Assembly (NCBI GenBank): GCA_029881725.1
Contig: JAOUMB010000010.1
Location: 1,539-65,538, forward strand
Length of the DNA stretch: 64,000 nt
From: Nitrospirota bacterium
GTDB lineage: Bacteria > Nitrospirota > JACRHL01
Direction of reading: 5' to 3'
This document shows positions 28,411-50,317 of the stretch, one piece after another. The stretch's first letter is position 1; each line of letters starts with the position of its first letter. Under the pieces are notes generated by a model. That model did no database searches and was not told the DNA's origin. It saw only the letters and a list, made by a program, of their open reading frames with translations. The translations under genes and the position numbers were made by a program.

Positions 28411-28531
28411 CGTTCCCTCTCCCAGGCAGGGGATAATCGAACCCCGGCGGGCCATCCATGGCCATGCCGGTCGGTCCACTGTTCCAGAAGATTTACATTT
28501 TGGCAACCCGGCGGGCGGGCGCAGAGGCTGT

Positions 28532-28843
28532 CTAAGCGGCGGAAAGATGGATGGAAGTGGCGGCGCAGTAGTCACATTGCATCACCAGATGCCGCTGGTG
28601 GGATTCCGTCTCGCAGTGCATGACGCCGCTCAACTGGCCACTGCCACACACCCGGCACGGTTGCTCCTGTCCGCTGTGGTCGTGGGCGCGGGAAACGGTC
28701 ACTTCCGCCTGACAGGCGGTACAGGCCGCCCGGTAGCTATCCCCCCCACTCATGCAGGTGGAATGCAGTTCCAACTCCCCGGCGCCGCAGCAGGGGCAAC
28801 TGGTGGCCGCCAGCATGATGCGGGCACTGGCCTGATGATTCAT
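28532..28843 (-). CDS. Small Cys-rich protein (putative zinc-ribbon).
   Basis: About 103 aa from ATG MNHQASARIML with a GGAGGA RBS. Cys pairs CPCCG...C..C, CRVCG, CDYC. Sits between the beta-barrel gene and the A2M gene. Confidence 0.45.
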   Translation of the reverse strand: MNHQASARIMLAATSCPCCGAGELELHSTCMSGGDSYRAACTACQAEVTVSRAHDHSGQEQPCRVCGSGQLSGVMHCETESHQRHLVMQCDYCAATSIHLSAA

Positions 28844-29035: not shown

Positions 29036-31849
29036 TCAGAAGTCGATGCGGTAGCCCAGGGCGATGAACCAGGTTTCGGTCTTTTCGGTGGCACCGGCGA
29101 TCTTGCGGGAACTCCACGCCTGTCCCCCTTCCAGTTCGAAGCGCATGTTGCGCCCCGCCCGCCAGTCCAGACGCAACTCCGGACGCCACACGGTCTCCTC
29201 GGCGTTGTTGCGCAGGTCGTCCCGCAGGTCCAGCCGCAGGCGCGGGTTGAAGCGCCAGTTGGGGCCCGCCTGAAAACGGCTGTTGGCGGTGAAGGTAAGG
29301 GTGCGGGTAAAGTCGGTATCCGCCAGGCGCGCCCCGAGGATGGTGATGTCACCCTCCTGAAGCAGGCCGCTGGTGATGAACTGAAGGTTGTAGAAATAAT
29401 CCGGGCCGCTCTCCGGCATGCCGGGAATATCCTTAATCGGCGCTCCGGGAAGGGTGGGGTCCCCGATGGTACCCGGCGTGGCGCTCAGCTTGGTGGCGGT
29501 GATGTCGGCACTGATCTGGGTTTTCTTGGACAACGGCTTGGTGCCCCCCAGGGTGAGGGAGCGGGACAGCGGAGTGTGGTCCAGGGCGGCCTGACGAACC
29601 TGATCCTCGGTCAGCAGGGTCAGCAGTTGCTCAATGGTCGTGATCGGCGTCAGGGTGGCGGTATCCACCATCCCCTGCAATGCATTGGTGGTGGTCAGCA
29701 CCGGGCTCTTGCGGTAATCCAGCACCAGGTTCAGGGTGGTCTCGCTCTTGAAGCGCCAGTTCCCCACGAACATGATGGTGTTGTATTCCTGATAGGAACG
29801 GTCGTAATCCACCAGCGTGAAGAACGACCGGCGCTCCGAGAAGAAGCGCAGTTCGCCACCCACCGCATCGCGGTCGGAGATACCGTCCACAGTCTGTTCG
29901 ATCTTGAACAAGTTCATGTCCAGGTGATTGAACAGGGTGCCGATGTCCACGCTGACGCCGTTGAATTCGCGGCGGCGGTTGATGGTGTTGCCGGTGGAAA
30001 TCTCCACCGGATAGCCCCGCACCAGGTTGACCTTCAACCGCCCGCCCAGGTTCTGGCGCAACAGGGTGCCGTCAAAGCGCCCCAGCACACCGGAGGTGCT
30101 CAGGGTCTGCCGCCCCACACGCAGGTTGGTGCGGGTGGGCTGGAACTGGGCATCCACATAGGCGGCGGTGAGGCGTCCCTCGCTGTTGGACTGGTTGGCA
30201 AAGTCGCGCCGGTAGCCGGTGGTGATCCGGGAACGGAAATCCAGCCGGTCGCTACGGCGCCGCCAGGTGAGATCCAGATCGGTATTGAGAAGCGAAAGGT
30301 CGGTACTCACCACGCCGGTGGGGTCCGTGGTCACATCACGCCGGTAATACTGGGACAGACCGCCGAAAAAGTCCTTGTGCACCTGCCCCTGGGCGCGCGT
30401 CACCTTGCGCAGTTCCTGGCGCTGCCCCGGCCCGGCGGCGGTAATGATGCCCGCCAGACGCTGGCGCACACGGGCCGCCGCGTCGCCGTCGGGATAGCGC
30501 TCCAGAAAATCGGTATAGATCTGCTTGGCGTGGGCGAACTGCCCCTTGCGCTCGCGGGCCAGCCCCAGATACTCCAGGGCATCCTGCTGATAGGGATGAT
30601 CCGCGAAACGCAGCACTTTGGTGTACAGGCGCACGGCGGTGTCGTAATCGGAGTCCACCATGGCCCGACGGGCGTCGTCCATCAGCTTCTTGAGCAGGGC
30701 TTCGTCCCCCTTGGGCGCATCGGCCACGGCCACCGGTGCCACGGTGCGCGGCGTGACCGCATGGGCCGAAGCAGCCACCCGCTCGGCCTCGGAAACCTCG
30801 GTCACCCAGGCGCCCGGGAAGGCCGTGGCCACCCGCTGCTGAATGCGCAGCGCATCCGGTTTTTCGGCAAAGAAACCGAGACGCAACTGGTAGCGGGTGC
30901 GGTTTCCGGACCGGGTTTTGTGCACATAGAGCAGATAGCGGGCGAACTCCGGCAGATCGGGCAGTCCCGCGGCGGTGATCGGCTTGCTGTCCTGCCGCAA
31001 CTGAATGGCGAAGTTGCCCTTCGGCAACGGCACCGACGGCGCCACATTGGCCGCCGGAGCCGGTTGCGGATCCGCGGCGGGAGCCGGTTTGGGCGTGGCA
31101 GTCGGAGCCGGTTTGGGGGTGGCGGCCCGGGCCACGGTGCGCGGCTCCGGCTTGACCACCGAGCGACGGGAGGAACGGCGCTCCTTTTTGGTCACTTCCG
31201 TCACCCAGGCACCGGGAAAATCCCGGGAAAGGGCGCGCTGAACCGGGGCAGCCTCCGCCGAACTGTCGAAAAATCCGACCCGCAACTGATAGTAGGTGGT
31301 GTCGCCCCGAACCTGCTCCTCCACATACAGCCGGTGCTGCTTGAACTCCAGCCGGTCGGGCAGGTGAGCCGGATCGGGCGCGCGGGTACCGCGCCACAAC
31401 TGCACCGCGAAAATGCCATCTCCCTTTGGCTCCGGCTTGGCGTCACGGGTCCGGGTCGCCCGTCCACGCGGCTCGATGGCGCCGGCGGCGGAGTCCTTGC
31501 GCTCCTGCATCCCCACCCGGGTGATCCACGCGTCCGCGTATTCCGACAGCAGCGTCCGGCGCACCTTTTCGGCGCTCTCCATATCCGGAAAAAACCCCAG
31601 CCGCAAGCGGTACCAGGTGGTGCCGCCCTTGGTGAAGGAGGTCTGATACAGGCGGTAGTCGCGAAATGCATCCAGAGCCGGCAACGCCTTCGGATCCACC
31701 GGTTTCTTCTCCAGGGAAATCTGGATCACGTAGCCGTTGTTCAGATTCACCTTGGGCGCGGCCTGCGCGTTCGCGGCAAAGGAAAACAGCGCCGCGCAGG
31801 CGCAGAGCAGCGTCAGCAGCAGGCGGTATGGAAATGAGGTGGCGGGCAT
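29036..31849 (-). CDS. Outer-membrane beta-barrel protein with three N-terminal SPOR-like repeats and a TPR-like segment.
   Basis: Signal peptide MPATSFPYRLLLTLLCACAALFSFAANAQA. Three repeats of roughly 75 aa ending ...YRLRLGFFPDMESAEKVRRTL..AWITRV / YQLRVGFFDSSAEAAPVQRAL..AWVTEV / YQLRLGFFAEKPDALRIQQRV..AWVTEV (SPOR-like). TPR-like segment YTKVLRFADHPYQQDALEYLGLARERKGQFAHAKQIYTDFLERYPDGD. The last roughly 480 aa alternate amphipathic strands and end ...IALGYRIDF (OMP C-terminal Phe). An alternative TTG start lies at 31873. Confidence 0.8.
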   Translation of the reverse strand: MPATSFPYRLLLTLLCACAALFSFAANAQAAPKVNLNNGYVIQISLEKKPVDPKALPALDAFRDYRLYQTSFTKGGTTWYRLRLGFFPDMESAEKVRRTLLSEYADAWITRVGMQERKDSAAGAIEPRGRATRTRDAKPEPKGDGIFAVQLWRGTRAPDPAHLPDRLEFKQHRLYVEEQVRGDTTYYQLRVGFFDSSAEAAPVQRALSRDFPGAWVTEVTKKERRSSRRSVVKPEPRTVARAATPKPAPTATPKPAPAADPQPAPAANVAPSVPLPKGNFAIQLRQDSKPITAAGLPDLPEFARYLLYVHKTRSGNRTRYQLRLGFFAEKPDALRIQQRVATAFPGAWVTEVSEAERVAASAHAVTPRTVAPVAVADAPKGDEALLKKLMDDARRAMVDSDYDTAVRLYTKVLRFADHPYQQDALEYLGLARERKGQFAHAKQIYTDFLERYPDGDAAARVRQRLAGIITAAGPGQRQELRKVTRAQGQVHKDFFGGLSQYYRRDVTTDPTGVVSTDLSLLNTDLDLTWRRRSDRLDFRSRITTGYRRDFANQSNSEGRLTAAYVDAQFQPTRTNLRVGRQTLSTSGVLGRFDGTLLRQNLGGRLKVNLVRGYPVEISTGNTINRRREFNGVSVDIGTLFNHLDMNLFKIEQTVDGISDRDAVGGELRFFSERRSFFTLVDYDRSYQEYNTIMFVGNWRFKSETTLNLVLDYRKSPVLTTTNALQGMVDTATLTPITTIEQLLTLLTEDQVRQAALDHTPLSRSLTLGGTKPLSKKTQISADITATKLSATPGTIGDPTLPGAPIKDIPGMPESGPDYFYNLQFITSGLLQEGDITILGARLADTDFTRTLTFTANSRFQAGPNWRFNPRLRLDLRDDLRNNAEETVWRPELRLDWRAGRNMRFELEGGQAWSSRKIAGATEKTETWFIALGYRIDF

Positions 31850-31899
31850 GATTCGGGTATATCTTTTGTTCAATAAAAAACGATTTAAATAACGTGCTG

Positions 31900-32550
31900 T
31901 TACAGAACGGTGGATGGATCCGGCGCCGGGTCCGGAGTTGGGTCCGGAAATTCGGGCAGTATCTCCCCGGGCGCTTCCCCGGGCGCTTCCCCGGGCGCTT
32001 CCCCGGGCGCTTCCCCGGGCGCTTCCCCGGGCGCTTCCTGGGGCGCGTTTTGGGGCACTTCCTGCGGCTCCGGCTGCGGTGCCGGGAGGACGATCTCGAT
32101 GCTGCGATAATCCTTGCCCTGGCGCACGTCGAACGGCACCGCCTGATCAAAGCGCAGAATCAGATACGGGATGCCGCGCTGCTGCCCGCTCGGCTCGTCC
32201 CCTTCGGGGCCCGCGTCCCCTTCATACAGGATGCTCAGGCGCGGCAGGCCGGGCCGTTCCGGAAGCACCGCCGCCTCGCGCCCGAACAGGATGTCGTCCT
32301 CTGGGAACTGTCCGTCCGGCAGGCGGCGCACCCGCACCACCACTTCCCTGGCCGGGTCATGGGGAAAGTGGTCCACGTACTGGGCGATAAAGCGGAACTC
32401 CACGCGCACCACCAGCCCTTCGGCGGTGGTATCGATGGACACGTCCTCCATCACCCCCTGACGCACCGGCTGTGCCGCCACCGGGGCCGCAAGGCCCAGG
32501 CAGATTCCCAGCACGGCCGCCGCCAGTACGGCACCCGCATGCAAACGCAT
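31900..32550 (-). CDS. Secreted hypothetical protein with a C-terminal (EAPG)n repeat.
   Basis: Signal peptide MRLHAGAVLAAAVLGICLGLAAPVAAQP. Strong RBS GGGGAGGGG. C-terminal PQEAPGEAPGEAPGEAPGEAPGEAPGEIL. Confidence 0.6.
   Translation of the reverse strand: MRLHAGAVLAAAVLGICLGLAAPVAAQPVRQGVMEDVSIDTTAEGLVVRVEFRFIAQYVDHFPHDPAREVVVRVRRLPDGQFPEDDILFGREAAVLPERPGLPRLSILYEGDAGPEGDEPSGQQRGIPYLILRFDQAVPFDVRQGKDYRSIEIVLPAPQPEPQEVPQNAPQEAPGEAPGEAPGEAPGEAPGEAPGEILPEFPDPTPDPAPDPSTVL
31965..32036. repeat. 12-bp tandem repeat (ccccgggcgctt)x6 encoding (EAPG)n.
   Basis: Perfect 12-nt periodicity: gggcgcttccccgggcgcttccccgggcgcttcccc.... Confidence 0.85.
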
Positions 32551-32572: not shown

Positions 32573-34348
32573 TTAAAAGGCGCTGTCGGACACGCGGTGT
32601 TGGCGTGAACGGCTGTCCAGAATGGTGGTCATGCTCGAATTCGTATACACGTGGCACGACCCCGAGCAATCCCTCAACTCCGAAACGGTGTAGTTCACAC
32701 CGGGATACTTTTCATGCGGCCCGGAGCGGTAATTCCCGGAGTGGCACCCGGCGCAATCCGGCTGATAGGCCGGGGCCCGCCAGGTGACGGTTTCGCTGTT
32801 GGAACCGTGGCAGCGGGTGCAGGCCAGCGCCAACCGGTGGTCGCCCGGATAGTTCGGGGACTGGTGGCGGAAGGTGTCCGGAATCCAGGCGGTGGTGGTA
32901 TGGCAGTAGTCGCACGAGCGGCCGGTCTGGAAGTGGGTGCTGGTCTTGCCGGTGGCGTTGGTGCCGTTGTGGCAGGAGTTGCAGGTGCCGGGCGAAACGT
33001 TGGCGTGATCGAACCGGGCCGGCAGCCAGGCCACGGTGGAGTGGCAACTGTCACAACTGGCGGTGGTCTGCACGTGGGTAGCCGTCTTGCCGGTGGCGGT
33101 AATGCCGTTGTGGCAGGTGGAACACGTGCCGGGGGCCACCGCGCTGTGATCAAAAGAGGCCGGGATCCACGCGTTGGTGGTGTGGCAGTTGTCGCAGGTG
33201 TTGTCGCTGGCCACGTGGGTGGCATGTTTGCCGATGGCGGTGGTGCCGTTGTGGCAGTTGAAACAGGTGCCGATCACTTCCAGGTGGTCCACCCGCAGGG
33301 CCGGGATGAACGACACCGTGCTGTGGCAGGCTTCACACAGGCTGGATGTCTGGATGTGGGTGGCGTTCTTGCCGATGGCGGTGGTGCCATTGTGGCAGCT
33401 GAAACAGCCGCCGGTCACCTGGGCGTGGCTGAACACCGCGTTGGCCCAGGCGGCGGTGGTGTGGCAGTCGCCGCAGAGGTTGCTGCTCGGGATGTGGGTG
33501 GCACTCTTGCCGGTGGCAATGAGGCCGTTGTGGCAGGTGGAACATTCCCCGAGCACATCCGCGTGGTCCACGCGGGTAACGGTGGCAAAGCTGGTGGTGT
33601 TGTGGCAGCTTTCGCAGAAATTGGTGGTCAGCGGGTGCGCTGCGTGCTTGCCGGTGGCGGTGGTGCCGTTGTGGCAGGTGGAACAACTGCCGGTCACGCC
33701 GGTATGGTCGAAGCGCGCATTGAACCAGGTGGTCGGCGTATGGCAGTCCTCGCAGACGTTGCTGCTGGGAATGTGGGAAGCCGATTTACCGCTGGCGTCC
33801 ACGCCGTTGTGGCAGCGGAAGCAGTTGCCCACGATGCCGGTATGGTCGAAACGGATCATGCCCCAGGCGGTGGTGGTGTGGCAGTCGCTGCACGGGGCGC
33901 TGGTTTGCGGGTGGGTCGGGGTCTTGCCCGGGGCCACGGTGTTGTTGTGGCAACTGGCGCAACTGCCCAGCACGGAGGCGTGGTCCACCCGCGCCACCGG
34001 GTTCCAGCTGTTGGTGGTGTGGCAGTCGCCGCAAAAGTCGGTGCTCTGGATGTGGTTCTGCGGCTTGCGCGATCCGCTCACCCGCCCGGCGCGGGTGTGG
34101 CAGGCGGCGCACTGGGTGGGGGTGGTCTCGAAGATGCCGCGGATATGGCAGCTTTCACACTCCACCTGCTGGTGCGCGCCGGTCAGCGGAAAACCGCTCT
34201 TGAAGTGGTCGAACTGGGGGCGCCCGGACAGCTGGGCCGCGTCGGACATGGCCGGAATCAGCCAGGTGGCCAGCAGCGCTGCCGCCAGCAGGAGTACCCC
34301 CCACCAGCTCCCGAAGACCCCATCGGATGTGCTTTTATGATGCATCAT
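32573..34348 (-). CDS. Periplasmic multihaem c-type cytochrome with about 21 CXXCH plus 1 CXXXCH (paired/doubled CXXCH repeats).
   Basis: 591 aa with a signal peptide. Haem motifs counted: CESCH, CAACH, CGDCH, CASCH, CSDCH, CFRCH, CEDCH, CSTCH x3, CESCH, CGDCH, CFSCH, CEACH, CFNCH, CDNCH, CDSCH, CNSCH, CDYCH, CTRCH, CAGCH, CSGSCH. Repeating module C..CHT..W....FDH..V.G.C..CHNG.TA.GK..H. RBS GAGGT. Confidence 0.9.
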   Translation of the reverse strand: MMHHKSTSDGVFGSWWGVLLLAAALLATWLIPAMSDAAQLSGRPQFDHFKSGFPLTGAHQQVECESCHIRGIFETTPTQCAACHTRAGRVSGSRKPQNHIQSTDFCGDCHTTNSWNPVARVDHASVLGSCASCHNNTVAPGKTPTHPQTSAPCSDCHTTTAWGMIRFDHTGIVGNCFRCHNGVDASGKSASHIPSSNVCEDCHTPTTWFNARFDHTGVTGSCSTCHNGTTATGKHAAHPLTTNFCESCHNTTSFATVTRVDHADVLGECSTCHNGLIATGKSATHIPSSNLCGDCHTTAAWANAVFSHAQVTGGCFSCHNGTTAIGKNATHIQTSSLCEACHSTVSFIPALRVDHLEVIGTCFNCHNGTTAIGKHATHVASDNTCDNCHTTNAWIPASFDHSAVAPGTCSTCHNGITATGKTATHVQTTASCDSCHSTVAWLPARFDHANVSPGTCNSCHNGTNATGKTSTHFQTGRSCDYCHTTTAWIPDTFRHQSPNYPGDHRLALACTRCHGSNSETVTWRAPAYQPDCAGCHSGNYRSGPHEKYPGVNYTVSELRDCSGSCHVYTNSSMTTILDSRSRQHRVSDSAF

Positions 34349-34393: not shown

Positions 34394-35983
34394 TCACCGT
34401 TCAATGGTGATATCGGAAAACGACTCGGTGGTGTGGCACCGGCCGCAGTCTCTTCCAAACTGTTCGCTGTGGACATCGTCCTGCAGGTGACAGGCACCGC
34501 AGGTGTTGGGCTGTTTGACACCCTTTTTTGAGGGCGTTTTGTGGCACGCGAGGCAGTCCAACCCCTCGTGCTTGCCGTCCAGCTTGAACTCGGTCTGCCG
34601 GTTGTGGTCAAAGGACCACAGGGGCCACCCGTTGGGGTTGTGGCAGGTGCCGCACAGGCTTCCCAGCCGCCGTTTGTGCTCGTCCTGCTTCTTGTGGCAG
34701 GCATAGCACTCCCCTTCGGTTTTCACGTAGCGCCGGTCCAGGTGGCACTCCTCGCACGGGGTGACCGCGTGCTGGCCGATGAGCGGAAACGGCGTCAGGT
34801 CGTGGTCAAAGCGCACCTGATCCCGCCATCCGGTTTCCCGGTGGCACTGGGCACAGTTTTCGCCCTGGCGCCCGTCGTGCACGTCGTCCCCCTTGTGGCA
34901 GGCATAGCAGTCGGTCTTGAGCTCCTCCTTGTACAGCACCCCCTTGTGACAGGACCGGCAACGGGCCTTTTCGTGGGCGCCCTTCAGGCGGAAATCGGTG
35001 TCCTTGTCGTGGTCGAAGATCACCCGGTCCCACGCCCTGGGCGTGTGGCAGGAGTCGCATTTCTCCCCGTAGCGCCCCTTGTGCTCGTCGTCGTTCTTGT
35101 GGCAACTGTGGCAATCGGTCTTGAGTTCGTCCTTGTACAGGTCGCCGGTATGGCACGCTTTGCAGGTGACCTCCTTGTGGCTGCCCTTCAAGGGAAAATC
35201 GGTGTCCTTGTCGTGGTCAAACCGCACCCGGTCCCACTTGTCCGGGGTGTGGCAATCCTCGCACTTGTCGCCGTTGGCGCCCCGATGCACGTCGTTGATC
35301 TTGTGGCAGGCGACGCAGGTGTCGGGCACCCCCTTGTACTTCTCTCCCGGGTGACACATGGCGCAGGCCACGTCCATATGGGAGTCCCTGAGGGGGAAGT
35401 CGGTCTTGTCGTGGTCGAAGGCGGTTTTCTTCCAGCCGGCGGTGGAGTGGCAGTCCTCGCACTTTTCCCCCAGCCGCCCGTCGTGGGCATCGTCTTCCTT
35501 GTGGCAGGCAAGACAGGTGGCGGGGGCATCGCGGAACTTCTTGTCCGGCTTGTGGCAGCCGTCACAACGCACGCGCTGATGGCGTCCCTTCAGGCGGTAA
35601 TCGGTCTGGTTGTGATCGAAGGTTTCGCGGTTCAGGCCCACGACATCGGCACTCCGGCCCACGTGATCGGTGTGGCAGACCTGACACTCCTGATTCGCCA
35701 CCTGGGGGGAACGGCCGTGAAACCCGCGTTTTTTACCCACGTCGGACGCCACATCCTTGTGGCAGTCCAGGCACAGGTTGTTCTGCACCCCCTTGCTGAA
35801 CCGTTTGTGGCAGTTGGTGCAGGTGTCCTCGTACTTGGCGTGCCCGGAAATCAACTCGCCGGGCATTACCAGCCGCTCAAGCGGACCGGCGAGGGCGCTA
35901 TGGGGAAACGTCAGCACAGCCATGATAAAAAGCGCCAGCGCCGCTACCAGGGCGCGCCGGACGAAAAAATGCCGGTGCGGCAT
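34394..35983 (-). CDS. Periplasmic multihaem c-type cytochrome with about 21 CXXCH (polymer of c7/c3-like trihaem units).
   Basis: Signal peptide MPHRHFFVRRALVAALALFIMAVLTFPHSALA. 21 CXXCH motifs, from CTNCH through CGRCH. Repeating module C..CH..D.H.G..G..C..CH......W....FDH..T.F.L.G.H....C..CH. Its ATG overlaps the stop of the upstream gene (TGATG). Confidence 0.9.
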   Translation of the reverse strand: MPHRHFFVRRALVAALALFIMAVLTFPHSALAGPLERLVMPGELISGHAKYEDTCTNCHKRFSKGVQNNLCLDCHKDVASDVGKKRGFHGRSPQVANQECQVCHTDHVGRSADVVGLNRETFDHNQTDYRLKGRHQRVRCDGCHKPDKKFRDAPATCLACHKEDDAHDGRLGEKCEDCHSTAGWKKTAFDHDKTDFPLRDSHMDVACAMCHPGEKYKGVPDTCVACHKINDVHRGANGDKCEDCHTPDKWDRVRFDHDKDTDFPLKGSHKEVTCKACHTGDLYKDELKTDCHSCHKNDDEHKGRYGEKCDSCHTPRAWDRVIFDHDKDTDFRLKGAHEKARCRSCHKGVLYKEELKTDCYACHKGDDVHDGRQGENCAQCHRETGWRDQVRFDHDLTPFPLIGQHAVTPCEECHLDRRYVKTEGECYACHKKQDEHKRRLGSLCGTCHNPNGWPLWSFDHNRQTEFKLDGKHEGLDCLACHKTPSKKGVKQPNTCGACHLQDDVHSEQFGRDCGRCHTTESFSDITIER

Positions 35984-38145
35984 CAGTACATGTGTACCGC
36001 GAGCACGTGGATCAGCGCCGTAAACACCATCATCAGGAACAGGGGAAAGTGCAACAGGTGCCACAGGCCAAAAATCCGTTCGTAAAAGCCGAACTCCGCC
36101 ACCGAATGCACGGAGCGGTAGTATTCCTTAAAATGCTTGCGCAACGCCTTGCGATGGCGCGACAACGTCTTGCGGTCCCACCCGTCCTGCTCGGCGCGCT
36201 GCTTCAGGGCCACCCGCGCCACGCGCCGGATGCGCAGCCGGGTCCAGATGGTCCGAGGGCGCACGGTGAGCAGCCGCCAGGTGCGGCCAATCACCCCGGT
36301 GGGGGCGTTCAGCCACTTTTCCAGCCGCAGCAACCGCTCATTCATCTCTTCGGGAAATTCGATGTCCCCCTCCAGTGTACCGTGCGCGGATTTCAAACCC
36401 ATGCGCATTTCGGCGGCGGTGGCGCGGCGCCCATACAGGCCGTGATGGATCTTGGTGTACATGAATCGCCCGAACAGGCCGCTGAAGGCCACCACCAGCA
36501 TGGTGAACAGGGCGATCTGGCTGTTCAGGGAACCCAGGGCGAAATTGGAATGGAATACCACCAGCAGCGGCCCCACCACCCCCATGATCATGTGGGTCTG
36601 GAACCAGTACTTGACCGGTCCCATGCGGCGCATGAAATTCATTTTCTTGCGCATGGGGTAGAGCAGCAACAAGGCCATCATCACCGCCCCGGCAATGCCC
36701 AGGTAGTAACCGGTACCGGTTTCGGCGGACAGGTAGCCGGTCTCGCGCTGGGTCCATCCATACAGGGTGGCGCCGAACACGGCAAACATGAACAGCCCCC
36801 ACCCCAGACCGGAGGAAGCATCCGGAACGGCGGGGTCGTTGGCCGGGCGCGGTTCGGGAACCGGAATCGGACTGGCCTTGGCGGCCGGAACCGCAGCGGC
36901 CTTCTTGGCCTTCGGCGCACCATCCTGGCCACCCCCACCGGAACGGCCGGACGGCACGTGCGGGCGGCCGGGGCCACCGGACTTGCGCGCCGGGGTCGAG
37001 GCACATTGCTGGACCTGCGGGGCCGGGTCCGCCGCCGGAGCCGACACGGGCACCACCTGGCTGGCGGCTTCCTTGGAACGCACTGCGGACACCGTCGCGG
37101 CCACCTGAGCGGCCAGGGAGTCCTGGGGTGCAACCTGAGGCACGGCAGCGGGTGTCACCTGCGGCGCGGGCGTGGAAATTTTGGGAATGGCCACCCTGGG
37201 AGTGGCCTGGGGCGCCGGGGCGGGCACGGTCTGGGCGGCGGGCTTCACCGTCACCACCGCAGCCGCACGGGCAGCGGGAAGTTCACCCGGATTGCGGGCC
37301 GCATCGATAATCGCCTTTAACGCAGCCGCGTTGCGGTCCGGCGCCTCCGCCGGGGTACGGGCAGCCGCCACCAGTTTACGGACTGCGGCTTCACGCCCGG
37401 CCTCCTGAGTGGACTGGGGGGTGGCCGCCTTCGAGATCGCGGCGGTCGATGTCGGTTTCGGAACGGCCATCTTGGGGGCAGCGGCCTGCGGGGCAGCCAT
37501 CTTGGGGGCAGCCGCCTGCGGAGCAGCCATCTTGGGGGCAGCGGCCTGCGGAGCAGTCATCTTGGGGGCAGCCACATTATCGCCCAGCGTCATTGCCACC
37601 AGGCGGGCCATTGCCTCGCGCCGGATCGCCTGACGCGCGGCGGTTGATTGGGTATCTTCTATGGCGGTATCCGCCGGGGCCTGGGCAGCGGTTTGTGCCT
37701 GCACCGCGTCCATGATGCGTTCGGCTTCATCTCCAAACGCCACCGACAGCAGCATGGCCAGTTGCTCGCGGGTGGAGCGGGAACGTTGCGGCAACGGAGG
37801 CGCCGGCTGAGGCGCGGCGCCGGAACCAATCGGACCCTGAATGTGGCCGCCAGGCGGCGGCCCGATCAAGCCCGACGGGGTTCCCGAACCGCTCCCAACC
37901 CGACGCGCGATTTCCGAAGCGTGCTCGCCAAAGGCCAGTGACAGAAGGGATTCCAGCTCCGCACCGGATACCGGCTCCCCTTTCAACGGACGCGATTCCA
38001 CATCCAGACCAAAGAAATCGCCCTTCATCGGACCGGCATCGTCCAGGCTGCCCCAGCCTCCCGGGTGAACCCGGGAACCGGTGCGGTCAGACGACGGATC
38101 AAAGGATTCCAGTGCGTCCATATCCATGCCGGAAAAATCTTCCAT
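35983..38145 (-). CDS. Membrane protein with a roughly 440-aa Ala/Pro-rich low-complexity N-terminal region and a C-terminal 5-TM domain carrying two bis-His helices (ferric-reductase/cytochrome-b-like).
   Basis: 720 aa. Strong RBS GGGAGGTG plus ATG MEDFSGMDMDAL. In-frame (KMAAPQAAAP)n repeat. TM helices: GWGLFMFAVFGATLYGW; YYLGIAGAVMMALLLLYP; YWFQTHMIMGVVGPLLVVFHSNF (two His 14 residues apart); IALFTMLVVAFSGLFGRFMY; WHLLHFPLFLMMVFTALIHVLAVHMY (two His 14 residues apart). Confidence 0.65.
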   Translation of the reverse strand: MEDFSGMDMDALESFDPSSDRTGSRVHPGGWGSLDDAGPMKGDFFGLDVESRPLKGEPVSGAELESLLSLAFGEHASEIARRVGSGSGTPSGLIGPPPGGHIQGPIGSGAAPQPAPPLPQRSRSTREQLAMLLSVAFGDEAERIMDAVQAQTAAQAPADTAIEDTQSTAARQAIRREAMARLVAMTLGDNVAAPKMTAPQAAAPKMAAPQAAAPKMAAPQAAAPKMAVPKPTSTAAISKAATPQSTQEAGREAAVRKLVAAARTPAEAPDRNAAALKAIIDAARNPGELPAARAAAVVTVKPAAQTVPAPAPQATPRVAIPKISTPAPQVTPAAVPQVAPQDSLAAQVAATVSAVRSKEAASQVVPVSAPAADPAPQVQQCASTPARKSGGPGRPHVPSGRSGGGGQDGAPKAKKAAAVPAAKASPIPVPEPRPANDPAVPDASSGLGWGLFMFAVFGATLYGWTQRETGYLSAETGTGYYLGIAGAVMMALLLLYPMRKKMNFMRRMGPVKYWFQTHMIMGVVGPLLVVFHSNFALGSLNSQIALFTMLVVAFSGLFGRFMYTKIHHGLYGRRATAAEMRMGLKSAHGTLEGDIEFPEEMNERLLRLEKWLNAPTGVIGRTWRLLTVRPRTIWTRLRIRRVARVALKQRAEQDGWDRKTLSRHRKALRKHFKEYYRSVHSVAEFGFYERIFGLWHLLHFPLFLMMVFTALIHVLAVHMY
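37440..37575. repeat. 30-bp tandem repeat, about 3.5 copies, inside the membrane-protein gene.
   Basis: Unit catcttgggggcagc(g/c)gcctgcgg(g/a)gcag(c/t). Copies start near 37468, 37498, 37528 and 37558. Encodes KMAAPQAAAP repeats on the minus strand. Confidence 0.75.
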
Positions 38146-38571: not shown

Positions 38572-39921
38572 TTGGAAAAACTGCCGATTGGTCCGGAAAT
38601 TCTGGGCAAGCTGCCCTTCGACCCGGAATTGCTGATCTATATCGTCCCGCTGGTGGTGATCTTTCTTTTTTATGCAGGTCGCCGCTCCAGCGCCCACAAA
38701 AAAAGCAGCCGGGTCCTGCGCGAAAACCTGGAGGCGGGCCTCACCGAACCCGCATCGTTGCATCCGCTCATCGACGAGTCTCGTTGCATCGGTTGCGCCT
38801 CATGCGTCACCGCCTGCCCGGAGAGCAAATACGAGGTGCTGGGCATCGTGCACGGCAAGGCGGAACTGATCAACCCCACCGCCTGCATCGGCCACGGCGC
38901 CTGCAAGACCGCCTGCCCGGTGGATGCCATCACCCTGGTGTTCGGTACTGAAAAACGCGGGCTGGACATCCCCAACGTCAAACCCAACTTCGAAACCAAC
39001 ATCCCCGGACTGTTCATTGCGGGGGAACTGGGTGGCATGGGCCTCATCGGCAATGCCGTGGAGCAGGGCCGCCAGGCCATGGACAACATTGCCAAACTGT
39101 CCGGCATGGGCAAGGGCGACGGGTACGACGTGGTGATCGTGGGGGCCGGACCATCGGGCTTTTCCGCCACCCTGGGCGCCATGGAAAAGAAGCTGCGCTA
39201 CCTGACCGTGGAGCAGGATTCCCTGGGCGGCACCGTATACAACTTTCCACGCGGCAAACTGGTCATGACCCGGCCGGTGGACCTGCCCATCGTGGGCAAG
39301 GTCAGGTTCACGGAAACCACCAAGGAAAAATTGCTCGAGTTCTGGACCGACGTGGAAAAAAAGACGGGGGTCAAAATCAGTTACAAGGAACGGGTGGACG
39401 ACATCACCCCCTCCGGCAAGGGGTTCGTGGTCAAAACCAGCAAGGGCACGTACAAGACCCGTGCGGTGCTGCTGGCCATTGGCCGCCGGGGCACCCCGCG
39501 CAAGCTTGATGTGCCGGGCGAGGAAACTCCCAAGGTCACCTACCGGCTGATCGACCCGGAGCAGTACACGGGCCAGCATGTGCTGGTGGTGGGCGGCGGC
39601 GACAGTGCCCTGGAGGCCGCCACCAGCATCGCCGATCAGGCCGGTACCACGGTAACCCTGTCCTATCGCAGCGACGCCTTCGGGCGCGCCAAGGGCAAGA
39701 ACCGGGAGCGGGTGGACGCCGCCGTGGCAGCCGGGCGCCTGAATGTGATGCTCAAAAGCACGGTCAAGGAAATCACCCCGGACAAGGTGGTGATCGACCA
39801 CGACGGCACCCTGCACACGCTCAGCAACGACGCCATCATCGTGTGCGCCGGCGGCATCCTGCCCACCGGATTCCTGAAACAGATCGGCATTCAGGTGGAC
39901 ACCAAATATGGCACCGCCTGA
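38572..39921 (+). CDS. Membrane-anchored 2x[4Fe-4S] ferredoxin-domain FAD/NAD(P)-binding oxidoreductase (thioredoxin-reductase-like fold).
   Basis: TTG start preceded by GAGGAG. N-terminal TM helix LLIYIVPLVVIFLFYAG. CIGCASCVTACP and CIGHGACKTACP (two CxxCxxCxxxCP clusters). Dinucleotide motifs DVVIVGAGPSGFSA and HVLVVGGGDSALEAA. Confidence 0.8.
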   Translation: MEKLPIGPEILGKLPFDPELLIYIVPLVVIFLFYAGRRSSAHKKSSRVLRENLEAGLTEPASLHPLIDESRCIGCASCVTACPESKYEVLGIVHGKAELINPTACIGHGACKTACPVDAITLVFGTEKRGLDIPNVKPNFETNIPGLFIAGELGGMGLIGNAVEQGRQAMDNIAKLSGMGKGDGYDVVIVGAGPSGFSATLGAMEKKLRYLTVEQDSLGGTVYNFPRGKLVMTRPVDLPIVGKVRFTETTKEKLLEFWTDVEKKTGVKISYKERVDDITPSGKGFVVKTSKGTYKTRAVLLAIGRRGTPRKLDVPGEETPKVTYRLIDPEQYTGQHVLVVGGGDSALEAATSIADQAGTTVTLSYRSDAFGRAKGKNRERVDAAVAAGRLNVMLKSTVKEITPDKVVIDHDGTLHTLSNDAIIVCAGGILPTGFLKQIGIQVDTKYGTA

Positions 39922-41944
39922 CGCCGCACCCCCTTCCCGGCGCTGGTGGCCCGTCGCCGTCCTTTTGCTGCTGATGCTGCCCCTGTCCCTGCCCGCCCCG
40001 GCGCTGGCGGACCCCATGGATGACGTGAAGGCCGCCGTGCGCCTGCGCGACTATCCACGTGCCATCCGGCTGCTGACCCCCATTGCGGAAAAGGGCGATG
40101 CCGAGGCCCAGTACCAGCTCGGCTCCCTGTACCGCTCCGGACGCGCCGGGGACAATCCGAAGGCCGCGTTCCGCTGGCTGCTGGCCGCCGCCCAGCAGGG
40201 GCACGCCAAGGCGCAGTATTCGGTCGGCACCCTCTATGAAACGGGCACGGGGGTGGAGCAGAGCGCCGACCGTGCCCTGGTGTGGTATCAGAAGGCTTCC
40301 GCCCAGGGACACGACGGGGCCCAGACCCGCGCCGAAGCCCTCCAGGGTACCCTCGGAAGTAAAAAGGACCGTCCCAGCCGTCAGGAATTGACCGCGGCCC
40401 TTCTGGCCGCCGCCGAGAGCGGGGATGACCGCGAAGTGCGCAGGCTCCTGAAACAGGGGGGCGACGCCAACGCCACCGACGCCGCCGGGCACTCCGCGCT
40501 GATGAACGCCGCCGCCCAGGGGCATCTCAAGGTGGTGCGGATTCTGCTCAAGGCGGGCGCCAAGCCCAACCTGGCGGACAAATACGGGGATACCGCCGTC
40601 ACCCTGGCCGCCCGCCACGGGCGTCCGCGCACCCTGGTCGCCCTGCTGGACGCCGGGGGCGATGTCAACGCCACCGACGGCAACGGCAACACCCCCCTGA
40701 TCCTGGCGGCGCTGCACGATCACGCCAAGACCACCGAGTTGCTGATCAAGGCCCGCGCCCGGCTCAATACCCGGAACAAGAACGGAGAAACCGCCCTCGA
40801 CGTGGCCGTGCGCAAGGAGCACCGCAAGCTGGTCGCCCAGTTGGAAGCGGCGGGTGCCACCCGCACCGCACAGGCGGCGGAACCCGCCATACCTCAGTCC
40901 GTGGAGGCGCTGGAGGCGTTGCAGGCCGGCGGCGACGACGCCCTTTACGCGGGGTGGTCCACCCTGGCGGTGGCCGCCTGGCGTGGTCAGGCGGAGGCCA
41001 TGAAAAAGCTGCTGGCCCAGGGCGCCAGGGTGGACGCCCGCGACCCGGAGGGGCACACCCCTCTGAGCCGCGCCGCGTGGCAGGGCCACCTGGAAGCGGT
41101 CAACCTGTTGCTGGCCCGCAAGGCCAACCCCAATGCCTACCAGAAAGACGGCCGGAGCCCCATCCTGTGGGCAGCGGAAAACGGTCACACCGAGGTGGTG
41201 ACCGCCCTGCTCAAGGCCGGTGCCCGCGCTGGAGAGCGGCAGGGCAAGGATGGCGACAGCGCCTTGATGCTGGCGGTGCAGAAGGGCAGCGCCGAAACCG
41301 TGGAGGTGCTGCTGAAGGCCGGAGCCGATCCCAACATGGCCCTGCCCGACGGCGAAACCGCGCTGCTGCGCGCCGCCGCCCGCGGCAGCCTGGGAATCGT
41401 CCGCCAATTGCTGGCTGCGGGGGCCCAGGTGAATCATCGGGACCAGGATGGCCGTACCGCCCTCTGGTTCGCCGCCAATGCCGGCGCGGTCAAGACCTGC
41501 GGCGTGCTGCTGGGCGCCAGGGCCAATGTGGCCTACGTGGATGCCTCCGGTCACACGGCCCTGTCGCGGGCCGCCCTCGGTGGACACTCCGGGGTAATCG
41601 CCGCGCTGCTGAAACAGGGAGCCCAGCCCGACACACGCACCCGGGAGGGAAACACACCCCTGTTGCTGGCCGCCTCCGAAGGGCACCTGGAGACGATCCA
41701 GCGCCTGCTGGAAGCAGGCGCCAAGGTGAACACCCAGAACGAGGCCGGAGACACCGCCCTGATCCGCGCCGTCATCGGTCGCCATCCGCGCGTGGTAGGC
41801 TTGTTGCTCAATCAGGGGGCCGATCCGAAGATTCGCAACAAGAAGCGGCAAACCGCCCGCTCGCTGGCAGAGGAATCCGGGGACGAAAACCTGATCCGCG
41901 TGTTCGAAAAGCCGGAAGGCAAAAACCTGCTCGACCTGTTTTGA
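39908..41944 (+). CDS. Secreted protein with N-terminal Sel1-like repeats and about 14 ankyrin repeats.
   Basis: Signal peptide MAPPDAAPPSRRWWPVAVLLLLMLPLSLPAPALA. Sel1 units AQYQLGSLYRSGRAGDNPKAAFRWLLAAAQQGHAKAQYSVGTLYETGTG.... ANK consensus repeated, for example DAAGHSALMNAAAQGHLKVVRILLKAGAKPN, DGNGNTPLILAALHDHAKTTELLIKARARLN. The ATG overlaps the upstream stop by 14 bp. Confidence 0.85.
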   Translation: MAPPDAAPPSRRWWPVAVLLLLMLPLSLPAPALADPMDDVKAAVRLRDYPRAIRLLTPIAEKGDAEAQYQLGSLYRSGRAGDNPKAAFRWLLAAAQQGHAKAQYSVGTLYETGTGVEQSADRALVWYQKASAQGHDGAQTRAEALQGTLGSKKDRPSRQELTAALLAAAESGDDREVRRLLKQGGDANATDAAGHSALMNAAAQGHLKVVRILLKAGAKPNLADKYGDTAVTLAARHGRPRTLVALLDAGGDVNATDGNGNTPLILAALHDHAKTTELLIKARARLNTRNKNGETALDVAVRKEHRKLVAQLEAAGATRTAQAAEPAIPQSVEALEALQAGGDDALYAGWSTLAVAAWRGQAEAMKKLLAQGARVDARDPEGHTPLSRAAWQGHLEAVNLLLARKANPNAYQKDGRSPILWAAENGHTEVVTALLKAGARAGERQGKDGDSALMLAVQKGSAETVEVLLKAGADPNMALPDGETALLRAAARGSLGIVRQLLAAGAQVNHRDQDGRTALWFAANAGAVKTCGVLLGARANVAYVDASGHTALSRAALGGHSGVIAALLKQGAQPDTRTREGNTPLLLAASEGHLETIQRLLEAGAKVNTQNEAGDTALIRAVIGRHPRVVGLLLNQGADPKIRNKKRQTARSLAEESGDENLIRVFEKPEGKNLLDLF

Positions 41945-44723: not shown

Positions 44724-46028
44724 CTACGGGTGACCCGGGCACGGTTTGCCCGGCACGCAGATCATGATCACCGCCAGCATGCCGCCCGGTCCCACACCCT
44801 CGTTCTGCAACTCGATCTCGAAGTGCGAGTGGAACGGAACGTACATCTCGCCCATGGCGTTCAGGTTGATCGGTGCGTCGGCACCCAGGTCCACCTTGTG
44901 GCCCAGATAGGCCGTACCGCTGAACAACTGGCCAAAACCCACGTTGATGTTCACCGAGTTGTGCTCCGGCGGCACGATCACCGGCACCGGCTGGGTTACG
45001 TCTCCGCCATACACGTCGAACCCGAAGTTCATGGGCGGATCCCAGGTGAAGATGCCGTCCTGGGTGTCTCCCGGATGCATGGTCTGGGTGTACTCCTCAA
45101 TGGCCAGGTCGCCGTTCACGCCGTCGGAACTGAGCGGGCGGCCGTTGCGGGCCAGCACCATCAGATGGTTGCCGTGGCTGTGCAACGGATGCATGTCACG
45201 ATCGAAGGTCACCATGCGCACCAGCAGCCGCTCCTTGGGATACAGCGCCAGCAACGCGCCCATGGGCTGGTTGGGCAGATACGAAACCGTGTCCGGCGCG
45301 ATGGTGTCCGGGAATGCCCGCCCGTTGACGAACCAGTACTGGGGCAGATAGGCGGAGTTCTGATACGGCAGACCCGCCTTGATCCGCTTGTGCTGATCCG
45401 GGTCCACCGCGCTGTAGAACTGCACAACTTCATAGTCGTAGTTGCTGCCGGTGGTGAAGTAGGCCTGGTTGGGCAGCCCGGTGCGCACGATGATCGCGCC
45501 CACCAGTCCCATATCCACATGCTTGTGCGGATAGGTACCGCTGTAATAGGTGTAGGTGCCCGGCTTGGCCGCCACAAATCGATAGGACACGGTCTGTCCT
45601 GGAGCCGCCTCGCCCGCCAGGGAGCGCAGGGATTCCTTGCTGCCGCCGGTGGTGTAGGCCGGGCCGGTGGGCGCCCAGGTCACACCGCCGTCGGACGAGA
45701 ACTCCACGTTCTCGTGCCCGGGAAACAGCAGCGACACCGCATCGGCGCTCATGGGGCCGCTGGGGCCGTCCATGTCCGGCAGCGCGTTGGTCAGGTTGAC
45801 CGTTACCGTGTCACCCACCAGCACGTCGAGCACCGGGCCCGGGTAGCGGAAACCGCCCGCGCTGTCGCGGAAGCTCCACATGTAGATCTGGGCGCCGTCC
45901 GGCATCGAGATCTCACCCGCGTCGGCCGTCAGGTTGAATACCGCCGCACTGGCCGGGGTAAAGGCCATCAGAAGCATCCCGACGGACACCCCTGCCGCCG
46001 TCAGCATGCGTTTCATTACGCCGCGCAT
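44724..46028 (-). CDS. Multicopper-oxidase superfamily (cupredoxin) secreted protein that appears to lack the type-1 Cys ligand.
   Basis: Sec signal MKRMLTAAGVSVGMLLMAFTPASAA. HPLHSHGNH and HSHFE His clusters are retained. At the position where the neighbouring paralogue has YHCHVEPTEHIALGMVG, this protein has YPHKHVDMGLVG (no Cys). Confidence 0.75.
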   Translation of the reverse strand: MRGVMKRMLTAAGVSVGMLLMAFTPASAAVFNLTADAGEISMPDGAQIYMWSFRDSAGGFRYPGPVLDVLVGDTVTVNLTNALPDMDGPSGPMSADAVSLLFPGHENVEFSSDGGVTWAPTGPAYTTGGSKESLRSLAGEAAPGQTVSYRFVAAKPGTYTYYSGTYPHKHVDMGLVGAIIVRTGLPNQAYFTTGSNYDYEVVQFYSAVDPDQHKRIKAGLPYQNSAYLPQYWFVNGRAFPDTIAPDTVSYLPNQPMGALLALYPKERLLVRMVTFDRDMHPLHSHGNHLMVLARNGRPLSSDGVNGDLAIEEYTQTMHPGDTQDGIFTWDPPMNFGFDVYGGDVTQPVPVIVPPEHNSVNINVGFGQLFSGTAYLGHKVDLGADAPINLNAMGEMYVPFHSHFEIELQNEGVGPGGMLAVIMICVPGKPCPGHP

Positions 46029-46109: not shown

Positions 46110-47498
46110 TTAGTTCAACCGGATCTCGGTGATCATGCCACCCCTGTTGTCCACTCCCAGGCCTGCCTGGCGATCGGCCAGAGACAGGTTTGCCTGGGTG
46201 TCCAGTTCGCGCCCGTACAGAAAATACGTTCCCGGAGCCAGCCCCGTGGTGTCCAGAATCACGTCCATCTCTTCCCCCCCGGCCAGCGCCAGGGCTGAAC
46301 GATGGTAGGAAAGGTCGGTGCCCGGAACGCCACCCGGGCCGTCCGGTCCGCGCAGGATCTTGGCATCCTTGCCCACCACGTGCATGGGAATGCCCGGGAT
46401 GACCAGCGAGTGCGAACGGTAGGTCAGGTTGTTGAGGCGCAGCAGGATGCGCTGCCCCACATTGGCCGTAATCAGCGACGAATACGGCTGGGCGATATAG
46501 TCTTCCTTGTAGGCGGAAGCGCCGTTCAGCATGACGTTGGCAGCCGGATCCGGCGCCGCCGGGAGTAATGTCTCCGGATAGGCACGACCGTTGAAGGTGT
46601 AGTAGTTGGCCTTGAACTCGGCCCACACGTTGCGCCCTTCCGCCACGGTCTCCAGATTATGGTGCTTGTCCGCGTCCAGGTCGTGCATGTGAATCACCTG
46701 GGCCACGTCATACCGGGTGTTGGGCGCGGCGCCGCCATCGTTGTAGGCGAAGAACTGCCCGGCGGCCGGGTTGTTCTGGGCCGGATTGACGATAATCGTG
46801 CCCACCATGCCCAGGGCGATGTGCTCCGTCGGCTCCACGTGGCAGTGGTAGCCGTAGGTGCCCGGATCGTTCAACTTGTAGAAATAGGTAAAGTTGCTCG
46901 AAGGTGGAACCGCAACCGACATCTCTGGCACCCCGTCAAACGCCGAAACCGCGTGTGCATACCCGTGGAAGTGGACCGTATGCGGGTCCGCCAGGTCGGG
47001 GCGCACCAACAGCCCGAGGTTGGTGATCGTCAGATAGAGGGACTGTCCCTCGTCCACTTCAATATCGGGTGCCGGAAGCGTAGCCTTGAATTTATAGTCG
47101 ATCAGGTCTGCCTCGGGCACTCCCGTCAGGTCCATGAATCCGAAAATGAACAGGTTGCTGCCGTCCGGCATCTTCACATAGCCGTCGGTGGTGCCCACCC
47201 GACGGCATACCGCCGTGGGGTCGATGGGCAGGCCACTCTTGTGGTTGTACGCGCCGTCGCCGTTCCAGTCGATGTCCTCGGCACCCGGGGTTGCGCTGTA
47301 GCCCGGAGCGGCGGGGTCCAGGGACCAGTCGTACGGCATGTTGTCAATATCGTTGGGGCACTGCATGCCCGTGCCCAGGGAAACCGGAGCGGTAACGGCC
47401 CAGGAGTCGGTGGCTCCGGCCAGCCCGGTGGCGGCCATGGCCAGCCCGAGGATCATGGTTTTGGCCAGATTCCATTTGTTGGAGCGCCGCGGCTTCAT
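46110..47498 (-). CDS. Multicopper-oxidase / NirK-like cupredoxin protein with an apparently complete set of copper ligands.
   Basis: Signal peptide MKPRRSNKWNLAKTMILGLAMAATGLAGA (possible Tat-like RR). HTVHFHG (HxHG), YGYHCHVEPTEHIALGMVG (H-C-H...H....M type-1 site), later VIHMHDLDADKHH. RBS GGGGAG. Confidence 0.8.
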   Translation of the reverse strand: MKPRRSNKWNLAKTMILGLAMAATGLAGATDSWAVTAPVSLGTGMQCPNDIDNMPYDWSLDPAAPGYSATPGAEDIDWNGDGAYNHKSGLPIDPTAVCRRVGTTDGYVKMPDGSNLFIFGFMDLTGVPEADLIDYKFKATLPAPDIEVDEGQSLYLTITNLGLLVRPDLADPHTVHFHGYAHAVSAFDGVPEMSVAVPPSSNFTYFYKLNDPGTYGYHCHVEPTEHIALGMVGTIIVNPAQNNPAAGQFFAYNDGGAAPNTRYDVAQVIHMHDLDADKHHNLETVAEGRNVWAEFKANYYTFNGRAYPETLLPAAPDPAANVMLNGASAYKEDYIAQPYSSLITANVGQRILLRLNNLTYRSHSLVIPGIPMHVVGKDAKILRGPDGPGGVPGTDLSYHRSALALAGGEEMDVILDTTGLAPGTYFLYGRELDTQANLSLADRQAGLGVDNRGGMITEIRLN

Positions 47499-50266: not shown

Positions 50267-50317
50267 CTTAATACTCCCACTGTTCACAGAACGACACATC
50301 CTTGTTGTTCATTTAAA

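Follow-up and report, generated by a model that had tools for sequence, protein, structure and literature searches.

The 64,000-nucleotide stretch of DNA analysed here (referred to below as the window; positions 1,539 to 65,538 of contig JAOUMB010000010.1, from a Nitrospirota metagenome-assembled genome, MAG) carries five tightly spaced genes on its minus strand. Read in the direction of transcription, they code for an inner-membrane protein (IMP), a protein of 529 amino acids with 21 haem-binding motifs, a second cytochrome, a small secreted protein and an outer-membrane protein. The subject of this work is the second of these genes (34394..35983, minus strand). Its open reading frame (ORF), CXXCH motifs and Pfam matches identify its product as a periplasmic 21-haem c-type cytochrome, which is likely to be the periplasmic multihaem cytochrome (MHC) of a porin–cytochrome cluster of the PCC3 type. 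This assignment is based on the motifs of the IMP, the order of the genes, the haem count, the composition of the second cytochrome and the synteny observed in 80 genome loci.

Results

Translation of the minus strand between 34394 and 35983 yields a single open frame of 529 codons plus a stop codon, which contains exactly 21 CXXCH motifs, that is, one haem per 25.2 amino acids (23.7 in the mature protein). The original prediction, made from the sequence alone, had given 21 motifs in about 530 residues (roughly 25 residues per haem), and a frame error had been named as a possible source of an inflated count; the retranslated frame confirms both figures and shows no such inflation. All 42 cysteines of the protein lie inside the motifs, and a motif count detected none of the variants CX3CH, CX4CH or CXXCK. 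Since seven other genes of the window, with a total of 7,848 amino acids, are devoid of any CXXCH, the 21 motifs of the cytochrome are far beyond chance. The window's remaining CXXCH clusters are the 21 motifs of the adjacent cytochrome gene and eight motifs that lie out of frame in a collagen-repeat gene.

The motifs are arranged periodically. Spacings of 16, 29 and 40 residues for the first three motifs are followed by a strict 17/18/32–33 rhythm that is repeated six times. The resulting six periods of 67 to 72 residues (units 2–7) are 35–59% identical to each other, and unit 1 is a divergent copy with 25–30% identity to the other units. The repeat signature that had been proposed previously, C..CH...D.H.G..G..C..CH...W...FDH..T.F.L.G.H....C..CH, corresponds to the consensus of units 2–7. 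No tandem repeats were found at the DNA level in this gene, which implies that the units are old. Downstream of the signal peptide the protein contains 22 histidines outside the CXXCH motifs, 21 of which are conserved, with three in each period. In an alignment of 62 homologues all 21 CXXCH motifs and the 21 additional histidines turned out to be invariant or nearly so. This conservation excludes a frame error and implies the presence of 21 bis-His c-type haems. Only three methionines are present in the mature protein, none of them at a periodic position.

Residues 1–32 (35888..35983) constitute a signal peptide with cleavage between MPHRHFFVRRALVAALALFIMAVLTFPHSALA and the following G, leaving a mature protein of 497 residues. 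The product is a Sec-type secreted, highly charged protein (fraction of D, E, K and R, 0.33; fraction of T, S, A, G and N, hereafter TSAGN, 0.25). The ATG start codon at 35983 overlaps the stop codon of the upstream IMP gene (TGATG), and the two genes are translationally coupled. An NCBI entry annotated as 'MAG: cytochrome C [Nitrospirota bacterium]' (P0001) is 100% identical to the cytochrome. It comprises 509 amino acids and begins 20 residues downstream of the ATG at 35983, a start that would truncate the signal peptide.

PCC3 was described as a combination of a porin, a T/S/A/G-rich extracellular MHC, an MHC of the periplasm and a conserved five-helix IMP (He et al. 2017, PMC5566968). Its periplasmic MHC possesses a median of 21 haems at 22–39 amino acids per haem (median 26). 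The IMP comprises about 300 amino acids and carries an SGXXG motif on transmembrane helix (TM) 4 and WX3HX13H motifs on TM3 and TM5; it was suggested to coordinate two b haems, as ferric-reductase domains do (PMC5566968). The corresponding features of the locus studied here are an adjacent IMP with both types of motif, 21 haems at the density given above and a TSAGN-rich second MHC. The gene order is that of Slit_1446–1449 of Sideroxydans lithotrophicus ES-1, i.e., IMP, periplasmic cytochrome, extracellular cytochrome and porin (PMC11429942), and ES-1 likewise has a T/S/A/G-rich second cytochrome. Moreover, PCC3 periplasmic MHCs such as Slit_0869 (21 haems) and Slit_1447 (24 haems) of ES-1 and Gallionellaceae MMseqs cluster 20 (PMC10734462) resemble the cytochrome in haem number, in their low number of amino acids per haem and in being built from repeats.

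The IMP gene (35983..38145, minus strand) encodes 720 amino acids and, based on two WX3HX13H motifs and one SGXXG motif, specifies a PCC3-type, ferric-reductase-like putative dihaem b protein. The motifs read WFQTH-x13-H (residue 514), SGLFG (residue 555) and WHLLH-x13-H (residue 695), and all of them lie on hydrophobic helices, with SGLFG on a helix between the two WX3HX13H motifs. The conserved domain corresponds to the last approximately 280 amino acids; no match to a Pfam or NCBIfam family was obtained for this protein. On the cytoplasmic side it has a basic loop of about 130 amino acids. IMPs elsewhere comprise about 270–300 amino acids. Residues 1–440 of the protein described here form an Ala/Pro-rich extension of low complexity (PKMAAPQAAA repeats) that is shared only by one other locus, also from Nitrospirota (L037). 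Because the GC content at third codon positions is lower in this N-terminal extension (0.72 vs 0.84), the true start of the IMP is uncertain. Ahead of the first helix, the closest internal start codon is GTG, at codon 397.

The second cytochrome (32573..34348, minus strand; 591 amino acids) also has 21 CXXCH motifs, and its richness in T, S, A, G and N is that of the 'extracellular MHC' type. Its haems follow a period of 23–24 residues, its TSAGN fraction is 0.46 and its fraction of D, E, K and R is 0.12. Domain searches returned Paired_CXXCH_1, Cytochrome_C7 and, weakly, a DmsE-family model. At 32924..33272 (minus strand) the gene contains a 141-bp tandem repeat of 2.5 copies with 74% match, in which the repeated segment equals two haem-binding units. 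This suggests that units of the second cytochrome were duplicated recently.

To define the conservation of the cluster, proteins of the window were compared by tblastn with 80 genome loci that encode homologues of the 21-haem cytochrome; 66 of these are close loci, and 32 are fully flanked, with at least 7 kb on both sides. The 80 loci derive from Gamma-, Alpha- and Deltaproteobacteria, Nitrospinaceae, Nitrospirota and others, and include Bradyrhizobium, a genus listed previously as bearing PCC3 (He et al. 2017, PMC5566968). An IMP gene is located directly upstream of the cytochrome homologue in 61 of the 66 close loci. The order in the related loci is IMP, charged cytochrome with 18–27 haems, TSAGN-rich cytochrome and outer-membrane protein. 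The TSAGN-rich cytochromes vary widely in haem number, from 8 CXXCH motifs to at least 113, at TSAGN fractions of 0.35–0.57. Those at the upper end are encoded in Bradyrhizobium sp. BR13661 (L058:11635-21363; at least 113 motifs in an ORF still open at the end of the locus), at L055:11785-18507 (73 motifs) and in Sedimenticola (L016:3814-8556; 62 motifs). The Bradyrhizobium count is higher than the record of 85 haems quoted by He et al. (2017, PMC5566968).

The last gene of the cluster (29036..31873, minus strand) encodes an outer-membrane protein and candidate PCC3 porin, in which a signal peptide is followed by three SPOR domains, a TPR segment and, at the C-terminus, a predicted β-barrel of about 440 amino acids. 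Pfam recognises SPOR (E=5e-18) and TPR, and no family match was obtained for the barrel region. The prediction of a barrel is based on approximately 19 amphipathic dyad segments and on the C-terminus, which ends in WFIALGYRIDF. An outer-membrane protein with TPR and predicted barrel is encoded downstream of the cytochromes in 52 of the 80 loci and in 29 of the 32 fully flanked ones. Its TPR and barrel part is conserved across phyla, and the peptidoglycan-binding SPOR part is present in fewer loci. The idea that this downstream SPOR/TPR ORF codes for an unrelated envelope protein was rejected, as its conserved part is the predicted C-terminal barrel, and it is syntenic with the PCC3 porin.

The same observations bear on a different view of the locus, in which the cytochrome serves as the periplasmic electron-transfer subunit of an oxidoreductase of the inner membrane whose substrate is soluble and periplasmic, extracellular transfer does not take place and the SPOR/TPR protein has no part in the process. 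Pairs of an MHC and a five-helix IMP that lack a porin do exist, and they were deemed unlikely to carry out extracellular electron transfer (PMC5566968). In addition, the outer-membrane protein possesses peptidoglycan-binding SPOR domains and a TPR segment next to a barrel that is a sequence-based prediction, and the genes immediately downstream are envelope genes. However, it is TPR and barrel, not SPOR, that are conserved behind both cytochromes in the 52 loci, in unrelated phyla and at the position of the PCC3 porin, and the second cytochrome exhibits the composition and the hypervariable haem number of extracellular PCC3 cytochromes. We therefore regard a purely periplasmic oxidoreductase as quite improbable.

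Between the second cytochrome and the candidate porin lies a gene for a small secreted protein of 216 amino acids (31900..32550, minus strand) with the signal peptide MRLHAGAVLAAAVLGICLGLAAPVAAQ. It did not match any family, and a homologue is present at the same position in 12 of the 80 loci. The envelope genes that follow the cluster encode an alpha-2-macroglobulin (2,016 amino acids; 22525..28575, minus strand) and PBP1C (20065..22416, minus strand); they are probably ordinary envelope-defence genes unrelated to the cluster.

The original prediction had interpreted the protein as seven concatenated c7-like trihaem units, and had suggested that HMMER and an alignment to PpcA be used to examine this view. 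Against Pfam Cytochrome_C7 (PF14522; 67 profile positions, gathering threshold 24.8 bits), the whole protein scored 105.6 bits (E=1.2e-30) in six stretches, and Cytochrom_c3_2 (PF14537) and Cytochrom_CIII (PF02085) gave weaker matches. PpcA, whose sequence was verified as that of PDB 1OS6, served as calibration control and scored 31.0 bits over profile positions 1–67. When single segments were cut in the Pfam register, which joins haem 3 of one period with haems 1 and 2 of the next, five of them reached 30.9, 30.5, 27.2, 27.5 and 32.2 bits over profile positions 6/7–67, scores like that of PpcA. Segments cut at FDH scored 20.2–27.0 bits, and three of four matched only about half of the profile. 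The register starting at FDH was abandoned, as calibration against Pfam shifts the natural c7-type domain by one haem.

Six c7-type (PF14522) trihaem domains were delimited in the whole-protein scan (34481..35734, minus strand; residues ~84–163, 162–229, 228–297, 296–365, 364–432 and 431–501), the last five of which were also scanned singly. Outside this array remain an N-terminal piece with two haems (residues 33–83) and a C-terminal piece with one haem (residues 502–529). Read in the Pfam register, the protein is thus predicted to comprise two haems, six full domains and one further haem rather than seven clean copies of c7. Each domain of about 70 residues contains three CXXCH motifs and three additional histidines, in line with bis-His ligation, much as PpcA binds its three bis-His haems within about 68 residues. 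The order of histidines and motifs within a period is two His, CXXCH, CXXCH, one His, CXXCH, which in the Pfam register amounts to 1,2,0 as opposed to 2,1,0 in PpcA, where H-x2-H precedes the CXXCH of haem I and one H stands between it and the CXXCH motifs of haems III and IV; in every register the order of axial histidines differs from that of c7/PpcA. Only one histidine, not two, precedes the 'haem I' motif, an extra FDH histidine follows it, and the I-to-III spacing is 33 residues instead of 24.

More specific comparisons produced little. Segments of the cytochrome did not match the NCBIfam equivalog NF043011 for Geobacter c7, on which PpcA scores 113 bits. Against TIGR04257, a model for 'nanowire' c(7)-type triheme cytochromes with a cut-off of 40, the whole protein reached 19.0 bits and single segments 11–21; this model is narrow, given that PpcA itself scores only 26.6 bits. 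Scores of the segments on the models for HmcA, the nine-haem cytochrome and QrcA were about equally weak. In hhalign comparisons of two-unit profiles with PpcA (PDB 1OS6/2LDO), a CXXCH-(12–13)-CXXCH pair aligned to haems III and IV, with a probability of 30–47%, and nothing else did. Searches of the PDB with the unit profile yielded marginal, CXXCH-driven matches to OmcA, GSU1996, NrfH and c3 that are useful only for defining the register; those to the GSU1996 fragments (3OUQ/3OV0) were weak (E about 1e-3) and in the same register as the Pfam domains. A phmmer search of the PDB sequences with the whole protein returned chance matches only, and Foldseek found no match for the full model in the PDB; in all, three fold searches gave nothing usable. 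The AlphaFold2 (AF2) model of the protein has a pLDDT of 79.8 and a pTM of 0.38, and the model of a fragment comprising residues 228–365 has a pLDDT of 88.3. As a low pTM is typical of extended repeat proteins, it was counted in favour of an elongated shape.

Hence, judged by the broad Pfam family, the repeat is no less c7-like than c7 itself, and there the resemblance ends. The earlier description holds in that the protein is composed of tandem trihaem periods of the c3/c7 class; it has to be revised with regard to the number of full domains and to a specific relationship with the Geobacter proteins. That the protein is a genuine Geobacter-type c7 polymer, or 'nanowire', with additional units could be argued from its PpcA-like PF14522 scores and from the GSU1996 fragment matches, weak as they are, in the same register, all the more since the match of PpcA to 3OUQ is itself no better than E=1.6e-3. 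Yet the score below the TIGR04257 cut-off, the lack of a match to NF043011, the different axial-His order and the equally weak scores on the HmcA, nine-haem cytochrome and QrcA models speak against it. So does the absence of a His-Met haem: the domains of GSU1996 contain one each (PMC10138318), whereas all haems of the cytochrome are predicted to be bis-His, with no conserved Met in place of a His. The genomic context differs as well, the gene lying in a porin–cytochrome operon that has a membrane protein of its own, and so does the taxonomic range (Nitrospirota, Proteobacteria, Nitrospinota). Taken together, these data make membership in the Geobacter polymers highly unlikely. What the two groups have in common is a single periplasmic polypeptide of tandem c3/c7-class trihaem modules with high haem density, as in GSU1996 and GSU0592 (12 haems each) and GSU2210 (27 haems).

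The protein had also been considered unusually long, a notion that could not be maintained. Among Geobacter proteins, GSU2210 contains 27 haems (PMC10138318), and PCC3 periplasmic cytochromes with 21, 24 or 27 haems have been reported (Hoover et al. 2023, PMC10734462). In the 66 close loci, 21 haems is the most frequent number (38 loci); 18 haems occur in 16 loci, from Alphaproteobacteria, and a few loci have 24 or 27. Haem counts in the 120 top homologues from the database are 21 (7 proteins), 24 (62), 27 (33), 30 (8), 33 (5), 36 (3) and 39 (1), nearly all counts being multiples of three. Relatives with the same 17/18/33 period extend to 78 haems in 1,855 amino acids (P0122), followed by 56 (P0123) and 50 (P0124). 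The highest count of the wider family, 94 CXXCH motifs in 2,321 amino acids, was found in a protein whose motif spacing differs from this period (P0121). Homologues are widespread, as a search suggested along with the original prediction revealed: 1,089 clusters at 50% identity were retrieved with E<=1e-30 and 4,926 with E<=1e-3, and the taxonomic range covers Nitrospirota, Proteobacteria and Nitrospinota.

Two genes that diverge from the operon are linked to it. The first (38572..39921, plus strand) encodes a membrane-anchored iron–sulphur flavoprotein (FeS-flavoprotein) with an N-terminal TM helix, a ferredoxin part with two [4Fe-4S] clusters and a flavin domain similar to YpdA, thioredoxin reductase (TrxR) and FNR. 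Fer4 and Pyr_redox_3 were recognised by Pfam, the NCBIfam models for the YpdA and TrxR families scored below their cut-offs, and the relatives in the PDB are 7a76/7a7b and TrxR-type FNRs. The TM helix is followed by RRSSAHKK, and we propose that the protein is the cytoplasmic-side partner of the cluster. Co-transcribed with it is a gene for a secreted ankyrin/Sel1-repeat protein (39908..41944, plus strand; Ank, E=3e-90; Sel1; signal peptide), possibly a periplasmic scaffold or chaperone. The FeS-flavoprotein gene is present in 31 and the ankyrin gene in 30 of the 32 fully flanked loci, compared with 29 for the outer-membrane protein, so that the linkage of both to PCC3 is roughly as tight as that of its known components. 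With a mean identity of 62%, as against 48% for the 21-haem cytochrome, the FeS-flavoprotein is the best conserved protein of the neighbourhood. Term searches of the main PCC3 papers found no mention of either gene.

Further upstream, the window contains two multicopper-oxidase-like genes (44724..46028 and 46110..47588, both minus strand) and a gene for a protein of 2,459 amino acids with PKD, SdrD and Ig domains and an N-terminal Cu-oxidase_3 domain (54412..61791, minus strand). These three genes are located within 9–20 kb of the PCC3 cluster and may be relevant to metal redox chemistry. An ORF of 879 codons in the same region (47660..50299, minus strand) specifies collagen triple-helix repeats (Pfam Collagen, E=1e-96). 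A third cytochrome gene considered at 48039..48863 was rejected, as the eight CXXCH motifs found there lie out of frame inside this collagen-repeat ORF.

Discussion

As a cytochrome, the protein described here is ordinary and of typical length; its kind, the PCC3 periplasmic MHC, was described in 2017, and the protein itself is already present in the NCBI database. The original prediction rightly recognised a multihaem cytochrome and overlooked the gene cluster by which it is identified. Some features nevertheless set the cluster apart from published PCC3s. The published examples are from Proteobacteria, whereas the host here is a Nitrospirota MAG; the IMP bears an Ala/Pro-rich N-terminal extension of about 440 amino acids; and in the outer-membrane protein three SPOR domains and a TPR segment precede a rather short barrel region of about 440 amino acids. 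Porin–cytochrome systems of the Manganitrophus type and the Cyc2 systems of Nitrospirota were considered as alternative identities and rejected, as the former contain dodecahaem cytochromes and the papers describing these systems do not include the cluster studied here. A survey of MHCs published in 2024 (PMC11475568) does not mention PCC3.

In its logic the cluster resembles MtrCAB and MtoAB, which combine a periplasm-facing multihaem cytochrome with an outer-membrane barrel (a predicted one here) and, in the case of Mtr, an extracellular multihaem cytochrome. By contrast, MtrA and MtoA are decahaem proteins of the DmsE/MtrA family which need separate periplasmic shuttles and CymA, whereas a chain of 21 haems could span the periplasm on its own. 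A further difference concerns the membrane partner, which here is of the ferric-reductase-like b-haem type and not a quinol dehydrogenase of the NapC/NirT type.

With respect to mechanism, we propose that the 21 bis-His haems are lined up without interruption in a roughly straight chain of about 20 nm, which would be long enough to bridge the periplasm. The estimate was scaled from GSU1996, where 12 haems extend over about 12 nm, and from MtrA, for which PMC5566968 quotes a length of about 10 nm with 10 haems. Published AF2 models of PCC3 cytochromes were described as 'long and mostly linear' (PMC10734462). Electrons would be relayed by hopping from haem to haem between the dihaem-b membrane protein and a cytochrome that is embedded in the porin or extracellular. 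Most likely, the cytochrome relays electrons across the periplasm.

Storage has to be considered alongside conduction. The cytochrome could act as a periplasmic capacitor in the way envisaged for GSU1996, i.e., buffer electrons without external partners instead of serving as an obligatory bridge. Its overall architecture is that of the Geobacter c7 polymers, and a role of this kind was proposed for these (PMC10138318), so that either concept, 'nanowire' or capacitor, can be applied to it as well; Hoover et al. (PMC10734462) raised storage for PCC3, and the high haem density would suit this function. On the other hand, translational coupling to a membrane protein of the b-haem type and a place in one operon with genes for an outer-membrane protein and another cytochrome, maintained in dozens of genomes, argue for a fixed place in a conduit, and neither the Geobacter-specific domain model nor the His-Met haem is found in this protein. 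A role restricted to storage thus appears unlikely to us, with the reservation that storage and conduction by the same protein are not mutually exclusive.

Several points weigh against the interpretation of the cytochrome as the periplasmic part of a PCC3 conduit. Membership in PCC3 is deduced from synteny, motifs and haem counts rather than from a direct comparison with Slit_0869 and Slit_1447, and sequence features are the sole basis for viewing the outer-membrane protein as a β-barrel. Haem geometry is not readable from structural models that lack haems, and the fold searches remained without matches. The function of PCC3 'has not been tested' experimentally (10.1101/2025.02.27.639646). Finally, both PCC3 clusters of S. 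lithotrophicus ES-1 are down-regulated on Fe(II) (PMC8788666) and, at the protein level, not induced on magnetite (PMC11429942).

Because of these latter two findings, the role in Fe(II) oxidation that is commonly assumed for PCC3 lacks support. We consider an outward, i.e., reductive, conduit at least as plausible. Ferric-reductase-type b-haem proteins classically receive electrons from a flavoprotein in the cytoplasm and deliver them towards the outside, as exemplified by NOX/FRE and MsrQ–Fre. A membrane-anchored FeS-flavoprotein of the NAD(P)H type is tightly linked to the cluster, and electrons that move outward through ferric-reductase-like b-haem proteins follow the membrane potential; both points render the outward direction plausible. 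The linkage of the FeS-flavoprotein and the ankyrin protein to PCC3 also provides a concrete alternative for the source or the destination of the electrons.

On this basis one may speculate, tentatively and with clearly less than even confidence, that PCC3 is a module of at least six genes and not a four-gene, quinone-linked Fe(II) oxidase. The FeS-flavoprotein would feed the dihaem-b IMP from the cytoplasmic side, the 21-haem cytochrome would constitute the periplasmic leg of an outward, quinone-independent conduit leading from a cytoplasmic reductant to an extracellular acceptor, and the ankyrin/Sel1 protein would serve as an assembly or scaffold factor.

Our analysis thereby documents a probably complete PCC3-type cluster from Nitrospirota, a phylum with nitrifiers and with oxidisers of iron and manganese, at a time when the published examples are from Proteobacteria. 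PCC3 is widespread, and the sole organism in which it has been studied argues against the assumed role as Fe(II) oxidase. If true, the reading of PCC3 as an outward conduit of six genes would explain why the clusters are down-regulated on Fe(II) in Sideroxydans, and also why PCC3 is present in many bacteria that are not iron oxidisers.

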